Positions 14,776 to 57,420 of a stretch of DNA of 64,000 bases are shown here, piece by piece. Below the pieces are notes generated by a model that was not told the DNA's origin, did not search any database, and saw nothing but the letters and a program-made list of their open reading frames with translations. The position numbers and the translations under genes were made by a program. The stretch's first letter is position 1; each line of letters begins with the position of its first letter. Source of the stretch: Alphaproteobacteria bacterium (GTDB lineage: Bacteria; Pseudomonadota; Alphaproteobacteria; RF32; CAG-239); the NCBI GenBank assembly GCA_017480745.1, contig JAFUSA010000008.1:86090-150089 (forward strand), read 5' to 3'.

Positions 14776-15516
14776 TCAGTCAACCCAATCCATATCCCAC
14801 TCTTCTGAATTAGGATCAATATCGAAATGAAAGGATATAGCTGTATCATCAGGATCTGATTCTATAACTTCTGAACATTTTTCCGTAATTTTATCTACAG
14901 GAATCGGAAAAGATTTGAAGTAATAACCAATATCACTATACAAAAGAACTGCACTAACATTTGCTGATGTCCAATCTTGACTCAACAGTTCAATACATGC
15001 TTCTTCATTATCTCCAATGTAGTAATCAAGACTAAACGCCTGATTATCACCGCTTTTGGATTTAATTGTCGGACCTAACACAACCCCGTAACCAAAAGGA
15101 TTGGTAATAGACATAATCTTACCATCAGTTACAGTAATCATTTCATCAGGGAATATTTTGGCTTTTTTAACTATCGGACAGCCATTGTAAGCAGATTTGC
15201 CTGCATTATAGTCATAACATTGACAACCGGAAGCGGGGCAAGTGCCATCCTTACTACTACAATCCGCCCCTTCATAATTTCCCTGTGGTCCCCAAAAGGC
15301 ACGCACATTGCCGGCAATGAGAGTTATCTGTTCAATAGTTTTGTTAATACGATATTTCATCATCGCTTTTGAATATCCGGCGATTCCGCCAACACTCAAA
15401 ACACCAATTATAGCCAGCACGCCCAACATCTCAATCATTGAGCGACCGCTCTGTGCATTTTTCGTCATTGCGAGCGCAGCGTGGCAATCTATATTTTTTA
15501 TCTCTAAGTTTCTCAT
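14776..15516 (-). CDS. Prepilin-like protein, paralog 1 (class III signal peptide, G|RSMIEML)
   Basis: MRNLEIKNIDCHAALAMTKNAQSG|RSMIEMLGVLAIIGVLSVGGIAGYSKAMMKYRINKTIEQITLIAGNVRAFW. Glu at +5, hydrophobic helix, conserved EACIEL..DW, and a C-terminal Cys. Confidence 0.8.
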   Translation of the reverse strand: MRNLEIKNIDCHAALAMTKNAQSGRSMIEMLGVLAIIGVLSVGGIAGYSKAMMKYRINKTIEQITLIAGNVRAFWGPQGNYEGADCSSKDGTCPASGCQCYDYNAGKSAYNGCPIVKKAKIFPDEMITVTDGKIMSITNPFGYGVVLGPTIKSKSGDNQAFSLDYYIGDNEEACIELLSQDWTSANVSAVLLYSDIGYYFKSFPIPVDKITEKCSEVIESDPDDTAISFHFDIDPNSEEWDMDWVD

Positions 15517-17369: not shown

Positions 17370-17993
17370 TTACTTAACTTCTCCGCTGAGGGAGCTATCT
17401 GCGAAAAACATGATGACGGTATCATATCTATTAGTGCACATATTTACCGCTCCCTCCACACTAACCGGAACTTTTAAATCGTGCAAAGCTCCATCATCAT
17501 CACTGATAGTGATTATATTTATATTTGCTACTGTCCAGTCATAAGTTAATAGTTCAATACAAACTTCATCAGGAATATCATAATAGGCTATACTGAATGC
17601 TTTATTATCTTCCTCTTCTGCTAAACTAACCCCACCACCGAAAGGATTGGTAATAGAGGTGATTTTACCAGCCGCATTAATGGTAATCATTTCATCAGGG
17701 AATATTTTGGCTTTTTTAACTATCGGACAGCCATCACCGGAAGATTGCCCATAGCAACCGGCACTATTGCAATAACAACGCACCCCGATATAATTCTTCT
17801 GTGGTCCCCAAAAGGCATGCACATTTCCGGCAATGAGGGTTATTTGCTCAATGGTTTTATTGATTCTGTGTTTCATCATTGCTTTGCTATATCCGGCAAT
17901 TCCACCAACAGATAATACGCCGATTATGGCGAGCACTCCTAACATTTCTATCATTGAACGACCATTTTGATATTTAATTTCAAAGTTTCTCAT
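17370..17993 (-). CDS. Prepilin-like protein, paralog 2
   Basis: MRNFEIKYQNG|RSMIEMLGVLAIIGVLSVGGIAGYSKAMMKHRINKTIEQITLIAGNVHAFW...VCIELLTYDW. Confidence 0.8.
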   Translation of the reverse strand: MRNFEIKYQNGRSMIEMLGVLAIIGVLSVGGIAGYSKAMMKHRINKTIEQITLIAGNVHAFWGPQKNYIGVRCYCNSAGCYGQSSGDGCPIVKKAKIFPDEMITINAAGKITSITNPFGGGVSLAEEEDNKAFSIAYYDIPDEVCIELLTYDWTVANINIITISDDDGALHDLKVPVSVEGAVNMCTNRYDTVIMFFADSSLSGEVK

Positions 17994-24921: not shown

Positions 24922-25671
24922 CTAATAAAATTTCAGAAGTAAAGCATTTTGATCGGCTTTTCCGTCAGCCGTTCCACAAACAGCGGCAGCATTGGCAGCA
25001 GTCATCGGACCTTTACCTCCGCAAGCAACACCCTCACCAACCGTACATGTTGTCACGGCAGTTTTAGCAAAATCGGTAACCGTTCCAGATGTTGCAGCTT
25101 TAGGTGTACAACCATTTTTCGGATTACCTTGAGCGTCTTTACAATCGTCTCCAGCATCTGCACCTGCCAATTCACCAGCAATTATTTTAGCCTGAATTAA
25201 ACCTGAACCGGAAGCTGAGCCCCAATCCTGAGTTGCCAAATCCATACATGCTTCTTCCGGAATATTATCAAAAACCAATACAAAAGATTTAGCATCACCG
25301 CAACCGGTGCAAGTACCGGTTTCTGTGGTGCTGCTGCGTGCACCCGCTTGCAGATAAATGTTTCCACCAAATGGATTGCCATTAGCTATTATTCCATCAC
25401 TTGTAATCAACTCATCCGGAAATAACTTTGCTTTGGCAATCAAACTTCCGTTTGTTGCGGCACCCAAAGCCTTGTAATTCTTTTGGCTACCGAACAGGGT
25501 GCGCACGTTGGTTACAATCATTGAAATTTGTTCAATAGTTTTATTAGTGCGATATTTCATCATCGCTTTGGAATAACCGGCAATACCACCAACGCTCAAC
25601 ACGCCGATAATTGCCAATACGCCGAGCATTTCAATCATGGAACGACCGGATTCGATATTGTGTGTTTTCAT
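24922..25671 (-). CDS. Prepilin-like protein, paralog 3 (divergent Cys/Gly/Ala-rich C-terminal half)
   Basis: Start trimmed to ATG 25671 behind gaaggag: MKTHNIESG|RSMIEMLGVLAIIGVLSVGGIAGYSKAMMKYRTNKTIEQISMIVTNVRTLF...EACMDLATQDW. Confidence 0.8.
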   Translation of the reverse strand: MKTHNIESGRSMIEMLGVLAIIGVLSVGGIAGYSKAMMKYRTNKTIEQISMIVTNVRTLFGSQKNYKALGAATNGSLIAKAKLFPDELITSDGIIANGNPFGGNIYLQAGARSSTTETGTCTGCGDAKSFVLVFDNIPEEACMDLATQDWGSASGSGLIQAKIIAGELAGADAGDDCKDAQGNPKNGCTPKAATSGTVTDFAKTAVTTCTVGEGVACGGKGPMTAANAAAVCGTADGKADQNALLLKFY

Positions 25672-27082: not shown

Positions 27083-27772
27083 TTAACATCCATCAGGTAA
27101 TGAACAGCGATTTAGTTCTTTTTGCCAATAGGTGGAACTTTGCTGGATATCAAATAAAAAACTTATAGTTACCTGATCAAGATCAGAACAAACATTTATG
27201 GCATCATCAATGGCTATCGGAGGCAATAGATAATACTCCGGTTCTTCTCCATTTGTCTTTATGTTATAAGCATATATAATAGAAGCAAGACTAAGTGATG
27301 TCCAATCTTGTGTCAGCAATTCAATACAAACTTCTTCATTATGTGTAAACAATCCTATTCTAAAAGCCTTCTCATCTCCCTCGCTTATCTTATCCGCAGC
27401 TGCCAGAGCAACACCATCTCCCCAAACATCTTTAATGTAATTATAATCACCATCCCACATTTCATCGGGCACAAGTTTGGCTTTTTTAATAACCTTTTTA
27501 TCATCCAATCCAGCATAGTTTCCTTGCGGAGCAAAAAACGAGCGTATGTTTCCGGCAATGAGAGTTATTTGTTCAATGGTTTTGTTGATCCTATACTTAG
27601 TCATCGCCTTTGAATATCCGGCGATTCCGCCAACAGAAAGCACGCCGATGATGGCAAGAACGCCTAACATCTCTATCATAGAGCGACCGCATTGCGTGGC
27701 AAAGCGACACTTATAGTCATGCCTGTGCATGTTAATAATTTCTTTGATACTTTTTATATCTAAGTTTTTCAT
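27083..27772 (-). CDS. Prepilin-like protein, paralog 4 (29-aa presequence)
   Basis: MKNLDIKSIKEIINMHRHDYKCRFATQCG|RSMIEMLGVLAIIGVLSVGGIAGYSKAMTKYRINKTIEQITLIAGNIRSFF...VCIELLTQDW. Confidence 0.8.
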   Translation of the reverse strand: MKNLDIKSIKEIINMHRHDYKCRFATQCGRSMIEMLGVLAIIGVLSVGGIAGYSKAMTKYRINKTIEQITLIAGNIRSFFAPQGNYAGLDDKKVIKKAKLVPDEMWDGDYNYIKDVWGDGVALAAADKISEGDEKAFRIGLFTHNEEVCIELLTQDWTSLSLASIIYAYNIKTNGEEPEYYLLPPIAIDDAINVCSDLDQVTISFLFDIQQSSTYWQKELNRCSLPDGC

Positions 27773-30797: not shown

Positions 30798-31430
30798 ATG
30801 AGAAACTTAGAAATTAAAAATCAAAATGGCCGTAGTATGATAGAGATGCTTGGCGTGCTTGCCATAATCGGCGTGCTTTCTGTGGGCGGAATTGCCGGAT
30901 ACAGCAAAGCAATGCAAAAGTATAAAATCAATAAAACCATTGAACAAATAACTCTCATTGCCGGTAATATACGTGCTTTCTTTGCTAATCAACCCGAAGG
31001 AACTAAATACACGGATTTATATTCCGAAGGCGAAAAAGCACAAATACTAAAAAAAGCGAGGTTAATTCCTGATGAAATGTGGAATGGATCTAAAATAGAA
31101 AATATTTTTGGAGGTGCGACATACATTAGTTATTTGGGTACATCTGGTAATATTGATTATAGAAGTTTTCTCATTAATTTAGGAAACATACCACAAGAAG
31201 CTTGTATTGAACTTTTAACACATGATTGGAGCGCATCAGGAGTATATGTTATGGGTAATGTGAGTGCATTAGCTTATGGTGCTAAGGCAAGTCATGATAA
31301 TTGCGAAACAAAGGAAATTATGAGTGGACCTTATTCGTTTGGCTATACATATTGTGGTACATCAATGCCCATGGAAACAGCAATAGAATTTTGTAAGGAG
31401 GTAACAGATTTTTATTTAGGATTCCATTAA
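30798..31430 (+). CDS. Prepilin-like protein, paralog 5
   Basis: MRNLEIKNQNG|RSMIEMLGVLAIIGVLSVGGIAGYSKAMQKYKINKTIEQITLIAGNIRAFF...EACIELLTHDW. Confidence 0.8.
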   Translation: MRNLEIKNQNGRSMIEMLGVLAIIGVLSVGGIAGYSKAMQKYKINKTIEQITLIAGNIRAFFANQPEGTKYTDLYSEGEKAQILKKARLIPDEMWNGSKIENIFGGATYISYLGTSGNIDYRSFLINLGNIPQEACIELLTHDWSASGVYVMGNVSALAYGAKASHDNCETKEIMSGPYSFGYTYCGTSMPMETAIEFCKEVTDFYLGFH

Positions 31431-35236: not shown

Positions 35237-35980
35237 TTATCTGAAATAAAAGTGTAATTCAGCGTCATCAGAACAAGTGCTTGCGGCTTTATCAACGCTT
35301 ATCGGTAATGTTTTGTTGTAAATACAGCCAACATTATCATCATCCCAATAATCTCCCGTTACACAATCAAACATTACAGCACTGTCATCTTCATTTATTG
35401 CCAGAGCTATTAAATCGCTGACAGACCAATCATGTGTGGATAGTTCAATACAGGCTTCTTGCGGTAAACCATAAAGGGTTATCTTATAGCCCGTCACTGT
35501 TTTACTTCCGTTGCTGCCCCAATAATCGTAAATATAAACCGCACCACCAAAAGCATTGGTTATATTCGTGATATTACCGTCGGAATCTAATGTCAGCATT
35601 TCATCGGGTACAAGTTTGGCTTTTTTGATAATTGCTTTTCCTGTATCAGAATACGAAGATAATCCGTCATAATTTCCTTGCGGGCCGAAGAATGCCCGAA
35701 CATTACCGGCGATTAAAGTTATTTGCTCAATAGTTTTATTGATGCGATACTTTTGCATTGCCTTTGAATATCCGGCGATTCCGCCAACAGATAACACGCC
35801 GATGATGGCAAGAACACCAAGCATTTCTATCATTGAGCGACCATTCTGTCCGCCCTCAACATTTTGCACTTCTTTTGAGTTAAACAAAGCATTGCAATAA
35901 ATATTCTGCGGAGCGAACGAATGTTCGCGACCTGATGCGTTAGCATCACAAATAGTTTGTTTGAAATTACAATTTCCCAT
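35237..35980 (-). CDS. Prepilin-like protein, paralog 6 (46-aa presequence)
   Basis: MGNCNFKQTICDANASGREHSFAPQNIYCNALFNSKEVQNVEGGQNG|RSMIEMLGVLAIIGVLSVGGIAGYSKAMQKYRINKTIEQITLIAGNVRAFF...EACIELSTHDW. Confidence 0.78.
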   Translation of the reverse strand: MGNCNFKQTICDANASGREHSFAPQNIYCNALFNSKEVQNVEGGQNGRSMIEMLGVLAIIGVLSVGGIAGYSKAMQKYRINKTIEQITLIAGNVRAFFGPQGNYDGLSSYSDTGKAIIKKAKLVPDEMLTLDSDGNITNITNAFGGAVYIYDYWGSNGSKTVTGYKITLYGLPQEACIELSTHDWSVSDLIALAINEDDSAVMFDCVTGDYWDDDNVGCIYNKTLPISVDKAASTCSDDAELHFYFR

Positions 35981-36565: not shown

Positions 36566-37213
36566 ATGATAAACTATAATAATGAAAACGGTCGTTCGAT
36601 GATAGAGATGCTGGGCGTATTAGCTATCATTGGTGTTTTAAGTGTTGGTGGTATCGCTGGATATACCAAGGCGATGATGAAATACAGAATCAATAAAACC
36701 ATCGAGCAAATTACTCTTATTGCCGGCAATGTGAGAACGTTTTTCGCAAATCAAAAAACAATTTCATTAAGATTTAATAAAGATGGTCCACAGGATGAAG
36801 CAAGTGAAAAAATTGTCAGAAAGGCAAGGTTAGTGCCGGAAGAAATGATGTATTTGAATGGTGATGGCGAAATAGTGTATCTTGTAAGTACGTTTGGTGA
36901 ACGTTTTTTTGTAATAGGAAGTCCATCAAGCAAGTTCTTTTCCTTATATTTTTATAATCTTCCACAGGAGGCTTGTATTGAATTGTTATCGCATGATTGG
37001 AATAACGCTAATGCTTCTGCAATTAGTGTTAATGGCGGTGAATATCTTACTTTTTTTCTTCCAGTAAACGTGGATGATGCCGTGAAAGCCTGTGATTACA
37101 TCAACCGTAGCCTCGATAGTAATGGTGATTATAATGTATCGATATTATTTGACTACACCGGAGATATGACGGATGCTGTAAATGAAACAAAAGAAATATT
37201 GAGCAAATTATAA
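36566..37213 (+). CDS. Prepilin-like protein, paralog 7
   Basis: MINYNNENG|RSMIEMLGVLAIIGVLSVGGIAGYTKAMMKYRINKTIEQITLIAGNVRTFF...EACIELLSHDW. Confidence 0.8.
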   Translation: MINYNNENGRSMIEMLGVLAIIGVLSVGGIAGYTKAMMKYRINKTIEQITLIAGNVRTFFANQKTISLRFNKDGPQDEASEKIVRKARLVPEEMMYLNGDGEIVYLVSTFGERFFVIGSPSSKFFSLYFYNLPQEACIELLSHDWNNANASAISVNGGEYLTFFLPVNVDDAVKACDYINRSLDSNGDYNVSILFDYTGDMTDAVNETKEILSKL

Positions 37214-42292: not shown

Positions 42293-42970
42293 ATGAAAAA
42301 CTTAGAAATAAAAAATCAAAACGGTCGTTCAATGATAGAGATGTTAGGTGTTCTTGCCATCATCGGTGTTTTGAGTGTCGGTGGAATCGCCGGATATTCC
42401 AAAGCTATGCAAAAATATAGAATTAACAAAACCATTGAGCAAATAACACTTATTACCGGAAACGTTCGCTCATTTTTTGCCAGTCAAGGAAATTATAGGG
42501 GATTAAGTTCAACTAATACAGGAAAAGCGATTATCAAAAAAGCTAAACTTGTACCTGATGAAATGTTAGAGCTCAATGCCGATGGTACCATAAAGCAAAT
42601 TAACAACTCTTTCGGCGGAACGGTTTTGATTGAAGCTGCTAATAAATCAAGTTCAGCTAATGGAAGTGAGCCTATATACATTTATGGTGATGAAAAAGCT
42701 TTTGCTTTATCTTTCAGCGATATTCCGCAGGAGGCCTGTATTGAATTGGTAACACAAGATTGGAGCGAGGCCAACATCGGAGCCCTCCAAAAAGGAGGTT
42801 TTATTCCTACTAAGAATAATGTAATTTTTACACCGGCAAGCATCGATATCGCCACGAATATGTGTGGTTCTACAAATGAAATATCTTTTTTTGCTGATGT
42901 TGATACTAATTCCACTTATTGGAAAGGTCTTTTGGGTGATGAAAAGTTGGTGGGTACTATCGGTAATTAG
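42293..42970 (+). CDS. Prepilin-like protein, paralog 8
   Basis: MKNLEIKNQNG|RSMIEMLGVLAIIGVLSVGGIAGYSKAMQKYRINKTIEQITLITGNVRSFF...EACIELVTQDW...NMCG. Confidence 0.8.
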   Translation: MKNLEIKNQNGRSMIEMLGVLAIIGVLSVGGIAGYSKAMQKYRINKTIEQITLITGNVRSFFASQGNYRGLSSTNTGKAIIKKAKLVPDEMLELNADGTIKQINNSFGGTVLIEAANKSSSANGSEPIYIYGDEKAFALSFSDIPQEACIELVTQDWSEANIGALQKGGFIPTKNNVIFTPASIDIATNMCGSTNEISFFADVDTNSTYWKGLLGDEKLVGTIGN

Positions 42971-50859: not shown

Positions 50860-51651
50860 TTAATACCACGTTACTCCCAGATCAGCGGCTTCCTTCTTAT
50901 AAAAACTTTCATCTGCATCAAAAAATAAAGATACACTTGTACTAATTACATCATCTTCAGGATCGACGTACGCATATGAACATATGTTGACAGCATTATC
51001 AATAGATATTGGTAAAGAAAAACTTGCTTTATCTATAGTTTGCAAGTTATTTACCGAAATAAAACTGACATTTGCGTTAGTCCAGTCATGTGTTAAAAGT
51101 TCTATACAAGCTTCTACGTTATTTCCTATGTCATACGTAACATCAAATGCTTGATCTTCACTATTAAATGATTTATAATTTGCATTTAATACAACTTTTC
51201 CACCAAAAACATTTTCCAAAGCCGTTTTGTCACTATTCCACATTTCATCAGGGACTAATTTAGCTTTGTGTATTATTTTTCTGCCATTAGTTTCATTGCT
51301 ATTCAATCCTTTATAATTCCTCTGCGGAGCAAAAAATGTTCGCACATTGCCGGCAATTAAAGTTATTTGCTCAATAGTTTTGTTGATGCGATATTTGGTC
51401 ATTGCTTTGCTGTATCCGGCGATTCCGCCAACCGAAAGAACGCCAATAATTGCCAACACGCCAAGCATTTCAATCATTGAACGTCCGCTCTGCGTGGCAA
51501 AACCACACTTATAGTCATGCCTCGATTCCGCAGGAATCGTCAAGTCATCTTCTGCTTGATTAAAATTAATTTGAAGATCCCTTGACGCATTCGCCTTTGC
51601 AAGGCTCTGCGAGGGATGACTTTTTATATTTTTTATTTTTAAGTTATTCAT
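50860..51651 (-). CDS. Prepilin-like protein, paralog 9 (56-aa presequence)
   Basis: MNNLKIKNIKSHPSQSLAKANASRDLQINFNQAEDDLTIPAESRHDYKCGFATQSG|RSMIEMLGVLAIIGVLSVGGIAGYSKAMTKYRINKTIEQITLIAGNVRTFF...EACIELLTHDW. Confidence 0.78.
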   Translation of the reverse strand: MNNLKIKNIKSHPSQSLAKANASRDLQINFNQAEDDLTIPAESRHDYKCGFATQSGRSMIEMLGVLAIIGVLSVGGIAGYSKAMTKYRINKTIEQITLIAGNVRTFFAPQRNYKGLNSNETNGRKIIHKAKLVPDEMWNSDKTALENVFGGKVVLNANYKSFNSEDQAFDVTYDIGNNVEACIELLTHDWTNANVSFISVNNLQTIDKASFSLPISIDNAVNICSYAYVDPEDDVISTSVSLFFDADESFYKKEAADLGVTWY

Positions 51652-52753: not shown

Positions 52754-53707
52754 TTAGTCAAATAATTGAACACCGCGAGAAAGTCTGATTCTCTGCGATT
52801 CTATTGTTGTTGATAAATTTAATTTTCCGCTCTTAATTATGCCGCGCAACTGGTCTCCCTTTGTGCCATCCGGATTAGCAAACACATATTCAAGTTCCGG
52901 ATGCTTAGGAACACCTACCAAACGTTGGTGTAACACACTGAGAACACCGTTACCCACCAAATCATACGACATATCTTCCGAAATACCGCTGGCAGCCGCA
53001 TATTTTACGATTGACTGAATGGCATCCGTTACAGTACTTGCGTGAATAGTAGAAAGCACTAAGTGGCCGGAAATAGCCGCACGCAGAGCTTCTGATGCAA
53101 TTTCAGGATCACGTATCTCACCCAAATAAACATAACGTGGTTTAGAACGCAACATGGACTTCAAACCCTCAGACCACGAACCTCCCGGAGGTGTCATCTG
53201 TTTGCAAATACCAAGTTCGCCGTTTACCGTATGATACGTGCCATCCAAAGGCATTTCAACCGGATCTTCCAACGTAAACGCATATCCGCCGTCACGAATT
53301 AAATACTCGCGCAACAACGCAGATAATGTTGTTGTTTTACCGGAACCAGTTGTTCCTGCCATTAATATCAAGCCGGAAGCACCGCTGAGCGATTTAAGAT
53401 ATTTAAGCAGATGATCCTCAATTCCAAGCTTATTGATATCCGGAACTGTATGAGGCATTTTACGTGCACAATACTGCTGACCATCTAATGTAACCGTTCT
53501 TTCCACACGATAGTTAAGTCCTTTGTATTTTACCAAATACGAAGGATTATTCCCATCGTATGTATCCATCACTGTTTGATAAAATTCCTGATAATCATCC
53601 GGCTCAACCTGAATCAAGCCGCTCGGAGTTTTACGTCCCCAAATATAGGCCGTTCCATCCGGAATAATATAAATATCGGAAAAATCAACTTCATTTACTG
53701 TAGCCAT
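52754..53707 (-). CDS. Type II/IV secretion-family ATPase, PilT-like (317 aa)
   Basis: Walker A GTTGSGKTTT, Asp box FTLEDPVE, Walker B/Arg LGEIRD, His box SGHLVLSTIHAS. Confidence 0.8.
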   Translation of the reverse strand: MATVNEVDFSDIYIIPDGTAYIWGRKTPSGLIQVEPDDYQEFYQTVMDTYDGNNPSYLVKYKGLNYRVERTVTLDGQQYCARKMPHTVPDINKLGIEDHLLKYLKSLSGASGLILMAGTTGSGKTTTLSALLREYLIRDGGYAFTLEDPVEMPLDGTYHTVNGELGICKQMTPPGGSWSEGLKSMLRSKPRYVYLGEIRDPEIASEALRAAISGHLVLSTIHASTVTDAIQSIVKYAAASGISEDMSYDLVGNGVLSVLHQRLVGVPKHPELEYVFANPDGTKGDQLRGIIKSGKLNLSTTIESQRIRLSRGVQLFD

Positions 53708-56550: not shown

Positions 56551-57420
56551 CTACTTAAAACCCAATATAATCTCGCAAGTATCTTCTGTGCACGAACATG
56601 CGGCAACAGCTTTTTCCAGTGGAAGCGGCAAAGTATTTCCCGCTGGACAAAAATACCTATCATCTTCCGCGGTACAATCATTATCCGCGACATTAGCCAT
56701 ATCTCCGTCCAACGTTTCATTGATATACATACCTACAACATTTGCGGCTTGCCAATCATGACTGGCTATCTCAATACAGGCTTCTGCCGGTAAATATGCT
56801 ATGCTTATGCCAAAAGCTGTAAAACCATTAGTTACATTCTCCGATAATACAACCCCACCACCGAAGGGATTGGTAATAGCGGTAATTTTTTTACCGGTAG
56901 AATCAAGAGTAATCATTTCATCCGGTAATATCTTGGCTTTTTTTATTATCGGACAGCCATTGACAGTAGAAGTAGGATAGCCGCTGCTGCTAACACCGCC
57001 ATCACTTCCCTTACATCCGTTGGTTGCATTGCAGGTATAACCACTACAATTAACCCCGATATAGTTCTTCTGTGGTCCCCAGAAAGCACGCACATTGCCG
57101 GCAATTAATGTTATTTGCTCAATAGTTTTATTGATGCGATACTTTTGCATTGCCTTACTATATCCGGCTATTCCGCCAACGCTTAATACGCCGATTATAG
57201 CCAGTACGCCTAACATCTCGATCATTGAACGACCAGACTGCGGCGCATCTGCACCACTCTCCGCAAGAGGTGAACATCCACTCTGTTCACTTTTTGCATC
57301 AAGCACTTCTTTTGCAGTTAAAAACGTATTGCAACAAATATTCCATGGAGCGGATGAAAATCCGCGACCCGGCGCACCAGCGCCGTTAATGTTTTGTTTA
57401 GAATTTATATTTCTCATCAT
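56551..57420 (-). CDS. Prepilin-like protein, paralog 10 (63-aa presequence)
   Basis: MMRNINSKQNINGAGAPGRGFSSAPWNICCNTFLTAKEVLDAKSEQSGCSPLAESGADAPQSG|RSMIEMLGVLAIIGVLSVGGIAGYSKAMQKYRINKTIEQITLIAGNVRAFW...EACIEIASHDW. Confidence 0.78.
   Translation of the reverse strand: MMRNINSKQNINGAGAPGRGFSSAPWNICCNTFLTAKEVLDAKSEQSGCSPLAESGADAPQSGRSMIEMLGVLAIIGVLSVGGIAGYSKAMQKYRINKTIEQITLIAGNVRAFWGPQKNYIGVNCSGYTCNATNGCKGSDGGVSSSGYPTSTVNGCPIIKKAKILPDEMITLDSTGKKITAITNPFGGGVVLSENVTNGFTAFGISIAYLPAEACIEIASHDWQAANVVGMYINETLDGDMANVADNDCTAEDDRYFCPAGNTLPLPLEKAVAACSCTEDTCEIILGFK

Follow-up and report, generated by a model that had tools for sequence, protein, structure and literature searches.

Silent randomisation of an invariant N-terminal block in a large family of predicted type IVb pilin genes of an uncultured alphaproteobacterium

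The stretch of DNA analysed here (the window; 64,000 nucleotides, positions 86090-150089 of contig C29, GenBank JAFUSA010000008.1) belongs to an Alphaproteobacteria bacterium and carries ten members of a family of genes predicted to encode type IVb pilins. The genome, G000, comprises 1.598 Mb in 34 contigs at 37.8% G+C. The N-terminal peptide of these genes is constant in protein and scrambled in codons, as paralogs 5 and 8 illustrate. Paralog 5 (30798-31430, + strand) is complete; its leader MRNLEIKNQN is followed by G/RSMIEML..., and it matches PilS_N at E=1e-7, above the curated cut-off. Paralog 8 (42293-42970, +) is likewise a complete gene (PilS_N 6.7e-10, Bundlin 1.4e-7). The 96-nt segments that span Gly(-1), the cleavage site and the alpha1-N helix (32 codons; 30828-30923, + in paralog 5 and 42323-42418, + in paralog 8) both translate to GRSMIEMLGVLAIIGVLSVGGIAGYSKAMQKY. 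Between them 17 of the 32 codons and 23 nt differ, with no residue change. Three of the differences are Ser codons that switch between the AGY and TCN families: position 3 (AGT/TCA), position 18 (TCT/AGT) and position 26 (AGC/TCC). The first-pass annotation of the window had drawn attention to this pair, and its figures proved exact on re-counting.

Random re-encoding of the same peptide by genome codon usage would be expected to change about 18 of the 32 codons, an estimate that combines the 16.9 computed for the 29-codon core with an estimated share for the three extra codons. The pair is thus about as divergent as random synonymous re-encoding. Only 21.6 of the 87 core sites (~25%) are synonymous, so the chance that 23 random substitutions would all be silent is roughly 1e-14 by rough arithmetic. 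Silent divergence between the two genes is even along their length: the proportion of synonymous differences (pS) is 0.64 in the core, 0.81 in residues 30-55 and 0.66 in the globular domain. Paralogs 5 and 8 are an ordinary, distantly related pair of the family, and on their own they carry no signal of exchange. Their non-coding leaders are 70% identical, against 48% at core fourfold sites, which bears out the earlier remark that leader retention stands out.

A six-frame search of the genome found 176 family members, 169 of them full length. Together they occupy 106.9 kb (6.7% of the genome) and are spread over 31 contigs. The 29-residue core is identical in 157 genes; the remaining cores mostly carry one conservative change (Ile/Val, Met/Ile, Lys/Arg or Ser/Thr/Asn). 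In a literature search, neither the family nor a pilin expansion of this kind was found described. Some contigs start or end inside the conserved 5' part of family members (C6:32, C25:32, C23:31444, C24:6066), and 141 nt are identical between the ends of C6 and C25. Identical 5' regions thus exist in some copies, and the genome may hold more than 176. Three copies are divergent and may, from their sequence, be candidate minor pilins. Two of these lie side by side about 4 kb past the window end (C29:153663-154959; GRSMLEMLGVLAVIGVITIGG... and GRTMIEMLGVLAIVAVVTVGG...), where they adjoin a ribosomal-protein cluster; both keep the cleavage motif and lack the invariant core.

The same core occurs in five other species of the genus (G002, G004, G012, G014 and G016) and in a metagenome-assembled genome (MAG) from roe-deer rumen. 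Most species have 4-27 matches; G012 has 106 and G000 176 (six-frame count), the cross-species search having scored 150 of 182 candidates in G000. Concerted evolution of the core within each genome is ruled out, the 29 residues being identical in all species examined. It follows that the constraint is ancient and does not depend on homogenisation inside each genome.

Any two of the 157 identical cores differ on average at 14.5 of their 29 codons. Genome codon usage would lead one to expect 16.9, so 86% of full randomisation has been reached. By fourfold third positions the figure is 73%: paralogs are identical at a fraction of 0.477 of these, where base-composition equilibrium would leave 0.287. 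"Saturated", the earlier word for the paralog 5 and 8 segments, thus captures the pattern and slightly overstates its degree. By direct counting, a pair of cores has on average 0.164 amino-acid differences across 65.4 non-synonymous sites, and with a synonymous divergence (dS) of ~1.6 the ratio of non-synonymous to synonymous change (omega) is ~0.0015. The direct count was used because two-step Ser AGY/TCN paths and a few variant genes artificially produce the Nei-Gojobori (NG86) pN of 0.07 for the core. In the globular domain, omega is 0.6-0.9 (pairs with unsaturated silent sites), a contrast within one gene of ~400-fold or more. Helix omega is thus far from 1, and the very strong purifying selection that had been claimed for the N-terminal segment is borne out. 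The C-terminal parts had been said to diverge freely. Their sequence and length do vary (169-248 residues from Gly), but two Cys, a Trp, a Pro and motifs such as KKAKLVPDEM and EACIEL..DW are kept.

The Ser switches belong to a wider polymorphism. AGY and TCN codons are both common at all three Ser sites (AGY share 21-38%), in other species too, and Thr (ACN) codons, one-step intermediates, occur in the family at each of the three positions. The switches between paralogs 5 and 8 are therefore family-wide polymorphism and not three double hits. The window holds one such intermediate. Paralog 7 (36566-37213, +) is the sole window copy with a core substitution, Ser26 to Thr, and its ACC codon (36665-36667, +) lies one step from both the AGC and the TCC Ser codons.

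Codon choices are statistically independent beyond ~3 codons; this and the 14.5-codon distance agree with the earlier statement that the paralogs have not been homogenised. A few positions show preferences: G9 GGC, I14 ATC and A23 GCC are preferred in every species examined, although ATC is a rare codon in this genome. Codons 22-25 (ATC GCC GGA TAT) form a small island of nucleotide conservation, e.g. at 30891-30902 and 42386-42397. GCCGGA (codons 23-24) is present in 126 of ~170 copies and is identical to the 3' arm of a leader hairpin. Pairing of GCCGGA with the TCCGGC arm of that hairpin was considered and is ruled out; the hairpin varies compensatorily, and GCCGGA does not co-vary with it.

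All features open to testing agree with type IVb pilins, judged by sequence and by a predicted model. The Pfam family PilS_N (PF08805) was matched at 28-40 bits (cut-off 22) by all four proteins tested, and Bundlin (PF05307) was above cut-off in two of these, below it in one and without a match in paralog 5. Matches to N_methyl and TIGR02532 were weak. A family profile built from 34 members of seven genomes found BfpA (8.8e-11) and Salmonella Typhi PilS (1.5e-5) in PDB, as well as TcpA and CofA. The AlphaFold model of paralog 8 (predicted local distance difference test, pLDDT, 87.9; predicted template-modelling score, pTM, 0.82) has one long helix at residues 4-52. Ranks 1-15 of a Foldseek search with this model are all type IVb pilins (CofA, PilS, TcpA; probability 1.0, template-modelling score 0.43-0.69).

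The class III signal is present: Gly at -1, Glu at +5, then ~20 hydrophobic residues, with G/RSMIEMLGVLAIIGVLSVGG in all copies. Leaders are 8-70 residues long. Residue +1 is Arg, a non-Phe residue that is unusual even among type IVb pilins. The invariant 29 residues comprise Gly(-1), the cleavage site and alpha1-N; alpha1-C follows at residues 30-52. In type IV pilins, alpha1-N is embedded in the membrane until assembly, when it becomes part of the filament core. In 34 sequences from 7 genomes, C139 and C181 (numbered as in paralog 8) never vary; the Cys pair that bounds the C-terminal D-region is kept, as the type IVb class leads one to expect.

The genome holds one Peptidase_A24 gene (PF01478) and a single assembly operon (C28:15.2-26.1 kb) with a secretin (PF00263), a 754-residue T2SSE ATPase (PF00437) and a T2SSF platform protein (PF00482). 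This operon is flanked by two members of the pilin family.

The known type IVb major pilins, namely BfpA (bundlin of enteropathogenic Escherichia coli), PilS (Salmonella Typhi and plasmid R64), TcpA (Vibrio cholerae) and CofA (enterotoxigenic E. coli), share with the present family the Gly-1/Glu+5 class III signal, a long alpha1, an alpha/beta domain, a Cys pair, a length of ~200 residues and a non-Phe residue at +1. They also share a dedicated operon (ATPase, platform protein and secretin) and an A24 peptidase. The differences lie elsewhere: 176 dispersed, separately promoted genes per machine instead of one operon-borne major pilin, Arg at +1, long modular pro-peptides in about half of the copies, and a host that is an uncultured gut or rumen alphaproteobacterium with a 1.6-Mb genome.

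Evidence of recombination comes from pairs with close globular domains. In these pairs, the globular parts differ at pS 0.08-0.35 and the cores still at 0.45-0.78. Along each pair, the fraction of differing silent codons steps down from 0.5-0.7 to 0.06-0.15. The step falls at alignment codons 27-54 in 34 of 40 close pairs and is significant by permutation (p<0.002) in 31 of 40; taken together, change-points range over alignment codons 20-54 and further. In some pairs, such as C31_p673 / C33_m3793, a scrambled stretch lies inside the gene with similar sequence on either side. In six clusters with close globular domains (25 genes, 88 pairs), cores differ at 14.1 of 29 codons, against 14.5 for the family, and one 13-gene cluster has five different leader classes. 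The reverse also occurs: among the 12 pairs with at most five differences in the core, 10 have globular domains that are unrelated.

Long identical tracts do occur between paralogs. In the first 165 nt of globular-distant paralogs, 22 in-register identical runs of at least 50 nt were found against 1.0 expected, and some paralogs share identical tracts of 100-141 nt. Paralog 1 (14776-15516, -) contains a 108-nt tract (15078-15185, -) with a 100% match to a paralog on contig C15 of the same genome (7118-); the flanking blocks are ~75% identical, and the leaders and downstream flanks of the two genes are unrelated. The pairwise homoplasy index (PHI) gives a significant signal of recombination in a 15-gene clade (z=-12.3) and, at p=0.008, among the ten genes of the window; for the 5' 165 nt, p is 0.001. 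These tracts, the PHI results and the 88 close pairs with background cores contradict the view, suggested by the first-pass reading, that the paralogs escape gene conversion.

The reach of exchange is limited on both sides of the core. Pairs whose leader module is at least 93% identical show excess similarity only in codons 1-5; in pairs with close globular domains, the excess reaches back only to ~codon 40. Codons ~6-40 thus form an island of locus-specific silent variation between two exchange zones.

Copies from other samples indicate the pace of this process. The exact proteins of paralogs 1 and 8 recur, with the same genes around them, on 5-6 contigs of other samples. For paralog 1 these number five, of which one, compared as DNA, is 100% identical over 3.7 kb. 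Four other-sample contigs (two loci) are 99.96-100% identical in DNA over 2.3-3.7 kb and may be one clone; the assemblies involve at least two assemblers, judged from contig naming. The genes are real and, in that population, stable, so exchange probably acts on an evolutionary timescale and is not a fast switch.

The age of the paralogs was gauged against other genes. Between species of the genus, the fraction of silent codon differences is 0.24-0.31 in rplS, 0.35-0.39 in ffh, 0.41-0.44 in trmD and 0.49-0.53 in rimM. The ceiling for rimM is ~0.54, and its silent sites are ~90-98% saturated between species; unconstrained silent sites therefore saturate within the age of the genus. Paralogs older than the genus, as a comparison of ffh between species (0.38) with paralog cores (0.56) might suggest, are ruled out by rimM and by the lineage-specific expansion. 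For 160 of 169 copies, the nearest globular-domain relative lies within G000. The consensus sequences of residues 30-55 are species-specific, and the 106-copy expansion of G012 belongs to a different subfamily. The paralogs' divergence is therefore on the scale of species splits within the genus and not older, with a lineage-specific expansion. "Old", as the paralogs had been called, fits the silent clock; it is qualified by rimM, equally saturated between species, and by the position of most nearest relatives inside G000.

The remaining window members lie on the minus strand. Paralog 1 belongs to a 4-gene mosaic cluster and has a long pro-peptide with a DCHAALAMTK module. Paralog 2 is at 17370-17993. 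Paralog 3 (24922-25671) has a likely start at MKTHNIES, and a longer open frame reaches 25755. Paralog 4 (27083-27772) carries an ESRHDYKC module in its pro-peptide, and paralog 6 (35237-35980) lies directly upstream of ffh. Paralogs 9 (50860-51651) and 10 (56551-57420) have long modular pro-peptides.

About half of the 176 genes have such long pro-peptides, built of in-frame repeat modules between a short leader and Gly(-1). The modules include DCHAALAMTK (n=23), ESRHDYKCG (n=23), STPAKNRQADVPQY (n=16), KNNDSLSRKGRGSQ (n=13) and others, and they combine in tandem. Their DNA is 83-92% identical, compared with 77-80% for the adjacent core of invariant protein. Some start with SGRSLL or GRCLL, similar to the GRSMIE cleavage site. 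In the window, pro-peptides lie at 15448-15516, 27689-27772, 35843-35980, 51487-51651 and 57235-57420 (all -).

Pilin genes flank the conserved ffh-rpsP-rimM-trmD-rplS operon at the same two positions and in the same orientations in G000 and G012 (window 35237-35980, -, and 30798-31430, +; G012:C8:40000-59900). The flanking pilins of the two genomes belong to different subfamilies, and none is present at these positions in four low-copy species of the genus. Positional orthology is rejected on these grounds; the genes could stem from independent insertion at preferred intergenic sites or from replacement.

Between paralogs 9 and 10 lies a gene for a T2SSE-family ATPase of 317 residues (PF00437, 114 bits; 52754-53707, -). 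It adjoins a FadL-type outer-membrane protein and a tetratricopeptide-repeat (TPR) protein and lies apart from the main pilus operon. The genome has three short T2SSE genes, of which this one is a candidate retraction ATPase or part of another system. A search of the window with Rfam at the gathering threshold found two tRNAs only. Some 10-30 nt past the stop codon of ~24 copies (e.g. C7:68034+, C31:673+, C32:1900+) stands a GC-rich hairpin, CCGCCGGCGC-cctcacaa-GCGCCGGCGG. It may be a terminator or a source of 3' homology for cassette exchange.

We hold with good confidence that these observations reflect selection on the protein, silent drift, and module exchange at the edges of the conserved block. 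Every copy would be cut by the single prepilin peptidase, handled by one assembly machine and fitted into the same hydrophobic filament core. Nearly any change in the first 29 residues is removed, and silent positions have drifted to the 73-86% randomisation observed, over roughly the time since the species of the genus parted. Leader modules upstream and globular-domain cassettes downstream have meanwhile moved between loci by recombination, with boundaries at codons 1-5 and ~27-54. By analogy with known pili, it is likely that the invariance is due to the shared components that cleave, extract and pack every subunit. It is about an even chance that exchange tracts are halted by the ~23% silent mismatch of the core, which would let modules move without homogenisation.

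Several points weigh against this account. That many paralogs are assembled or co-polymerised by one machine would follow from general knowledge of type IV pili, and cleavage is assumed, Arg at +1 being unusual for type IVb pilins. Constraint at a few silent positions shows that selection does not act on the protein alone. The 40 close pairs represent 27 genes in few clusters, which puts the independent events in the tens, not the hundreds. Globular cassettes could have been copied into loci, or duplication could have been followed by replacement of 5' parts. Apart from the hairpin common to ~24 copies, no clear 3' homology that could serve cassette replacement came to light, and the other-sample copies are essentially clonal and lend no support to exchange going on today.

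The reading offered at first pass, in which old duplicates diverge independently without exchange and purifying selection and age suffice, is unlikely, and as a complete account it is already contradicted. It agrees well with the uniform silent divergence of paralogs 5 and 8, with near-binomial pairwise core differences and unlinked codon choices, as in a star phylogeny, and with the decoupling of codons 6-40 from both flanks, as expected of old locus-specific sequence. It does not explain globular domains at 8-35% silent difference that stand next to background cores and different leader classes, nor abrupt and significant change-points, the rejection of no recombination by PHI and the excess of identical tracts. 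The possibility that silent core divergence is itself selected, since identical 90-nt tracts in 176 dispersed copies of both orientations would risk harmful ectopic recombination, is very unlikely. Exchange tracts that end at the block edges would fit a mismatch barrier, and at some sites, in this genome only, codon use is more even than genome-wide usage (Glu6 GAG 51% against 21%, Lys27 AAG 41% against 21%), which also speaks for this reading. The core, however, is less diverse than random re-encoding (14.5 against 16.9 codons), and over the timescale measured, ordinary drift suffices. Distant paralogs share longest identical runs of 17.0 nt, slightly longer and not shorter than the 16.0 nt of codon-shuffled controls, which rules out selection against shared identical tracts.

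Two further explanations concern the origin of the 5' contrast. A mutational hot spot, for example a transcription-associated one, could randomise silent sites while selection purges residue changes; silent divergence of close pairs is indeed 5-10 times higher in the first 30-50 codons than downstream. But this divergence forms a step at a position that differs from pair to pair and no gradient, it can appear as a scrambled patch inside similar flanks (as in C31_p673 / C33_m3793), and it equals the family pool average, as for swapped sequence. The leader modules just upstream are 83-92% identical, so the region is not hypermutable, and we regard a hot spot as highly improbable. The mosaic could also be an artefact of contigs mis-joined across pilin repeats in a metagenome-assembled genome such as G000, and the contigs that begin or end inside members (C6_p32, C25_p32, C23 31444, C24 6066) show that the repeats do disturb assembly. 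Against mis-joining, the proteins of paralogs 1 and 8 recur in the same context in independent assemblies with DNA 99.96-100% identical, close pairs differ at 5-15% of silent sites in their shared part and so are distinct real genes, and exact matches around change-points are mostly below the assembly k-mer length. A mosaic produced by assembly alone is scarcely credible.

Neisseria pilE/pilS has, like the present family, a constant N-terminal part and variable C-terminal parts swapped by homologous recombination. There, one expressed gene is served by silent, promoterless cassettes without an N-terminus, and exchange is frequent and programmed. The present family differs: of its 176 copies, 169 are full length, each having a start, leader, N-terminus and promoter of its own, the N-terminal DNA is not conserved, and loci are identical across samples. 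The R64 shufflon, which acts on the type IVb minor pilin PilV, also joins a constant N-terminal part to alternative C-terminal segments. It uses a site-specific recombinase and fixed short repeats at one clustered locus. Here, change-points are spread and genes lie on 31 contigs, which indicates homology-guided exchange; no search for a recombinase was made.

Multigene-family theory offers a framework for such a balance. For ~176 copies, it predicts that exchange shuffles variants and does not erase them. In the treatment of Ohta and Nagylaki, a balance of conversion and mutation, with many copies set against the exchange rate, reportedly keeps silent diversity high without a collapse into concerted evolution. 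This theory fits here, with the difference that exchange appears confined to the edges of the conserved block and not to run across it.

A constant type IV pilin N-terminus and recombination between pilin copies are textbook knowledge. The present case exemplifies known evolutionary processes cleanly and on an unusually large scale; new are the codon analysis, the copy count and the mosaic structure. What is unusual is that 157 genes share an identical 29-residue start in a 1.6-Mb genome, that omega differs ~400-fold or more within a single gene, and that the same constant block bounds module exchange on both sides. A further reading, conceivable though rather doubtful, is that the block serves as a universal joint and insulator of a combinatorial surface-protein library. 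Its protein identity would give enough DNA similarity to re-pair leader or regulatory modules and heads among ~176 loci, and its ~23% silent mismatch would end tracts at the edges, so that heads are moved and never homogenised. The small genome would thereby be shielded from large rearrangements, and silent scrambling would be a maintained functional property.

The family amounts to a natural experiment with ~170 replicates on which alpha1-N residues cannot change when many subunits share one machine. It also represents a very large library of alternative pilus heads, kept without homogenising the heads or scrambling the chromosome. Such a library suggests that uncultured Alphaproteobacteria of the gut and rumen vary their surface by a strategy not yet described.

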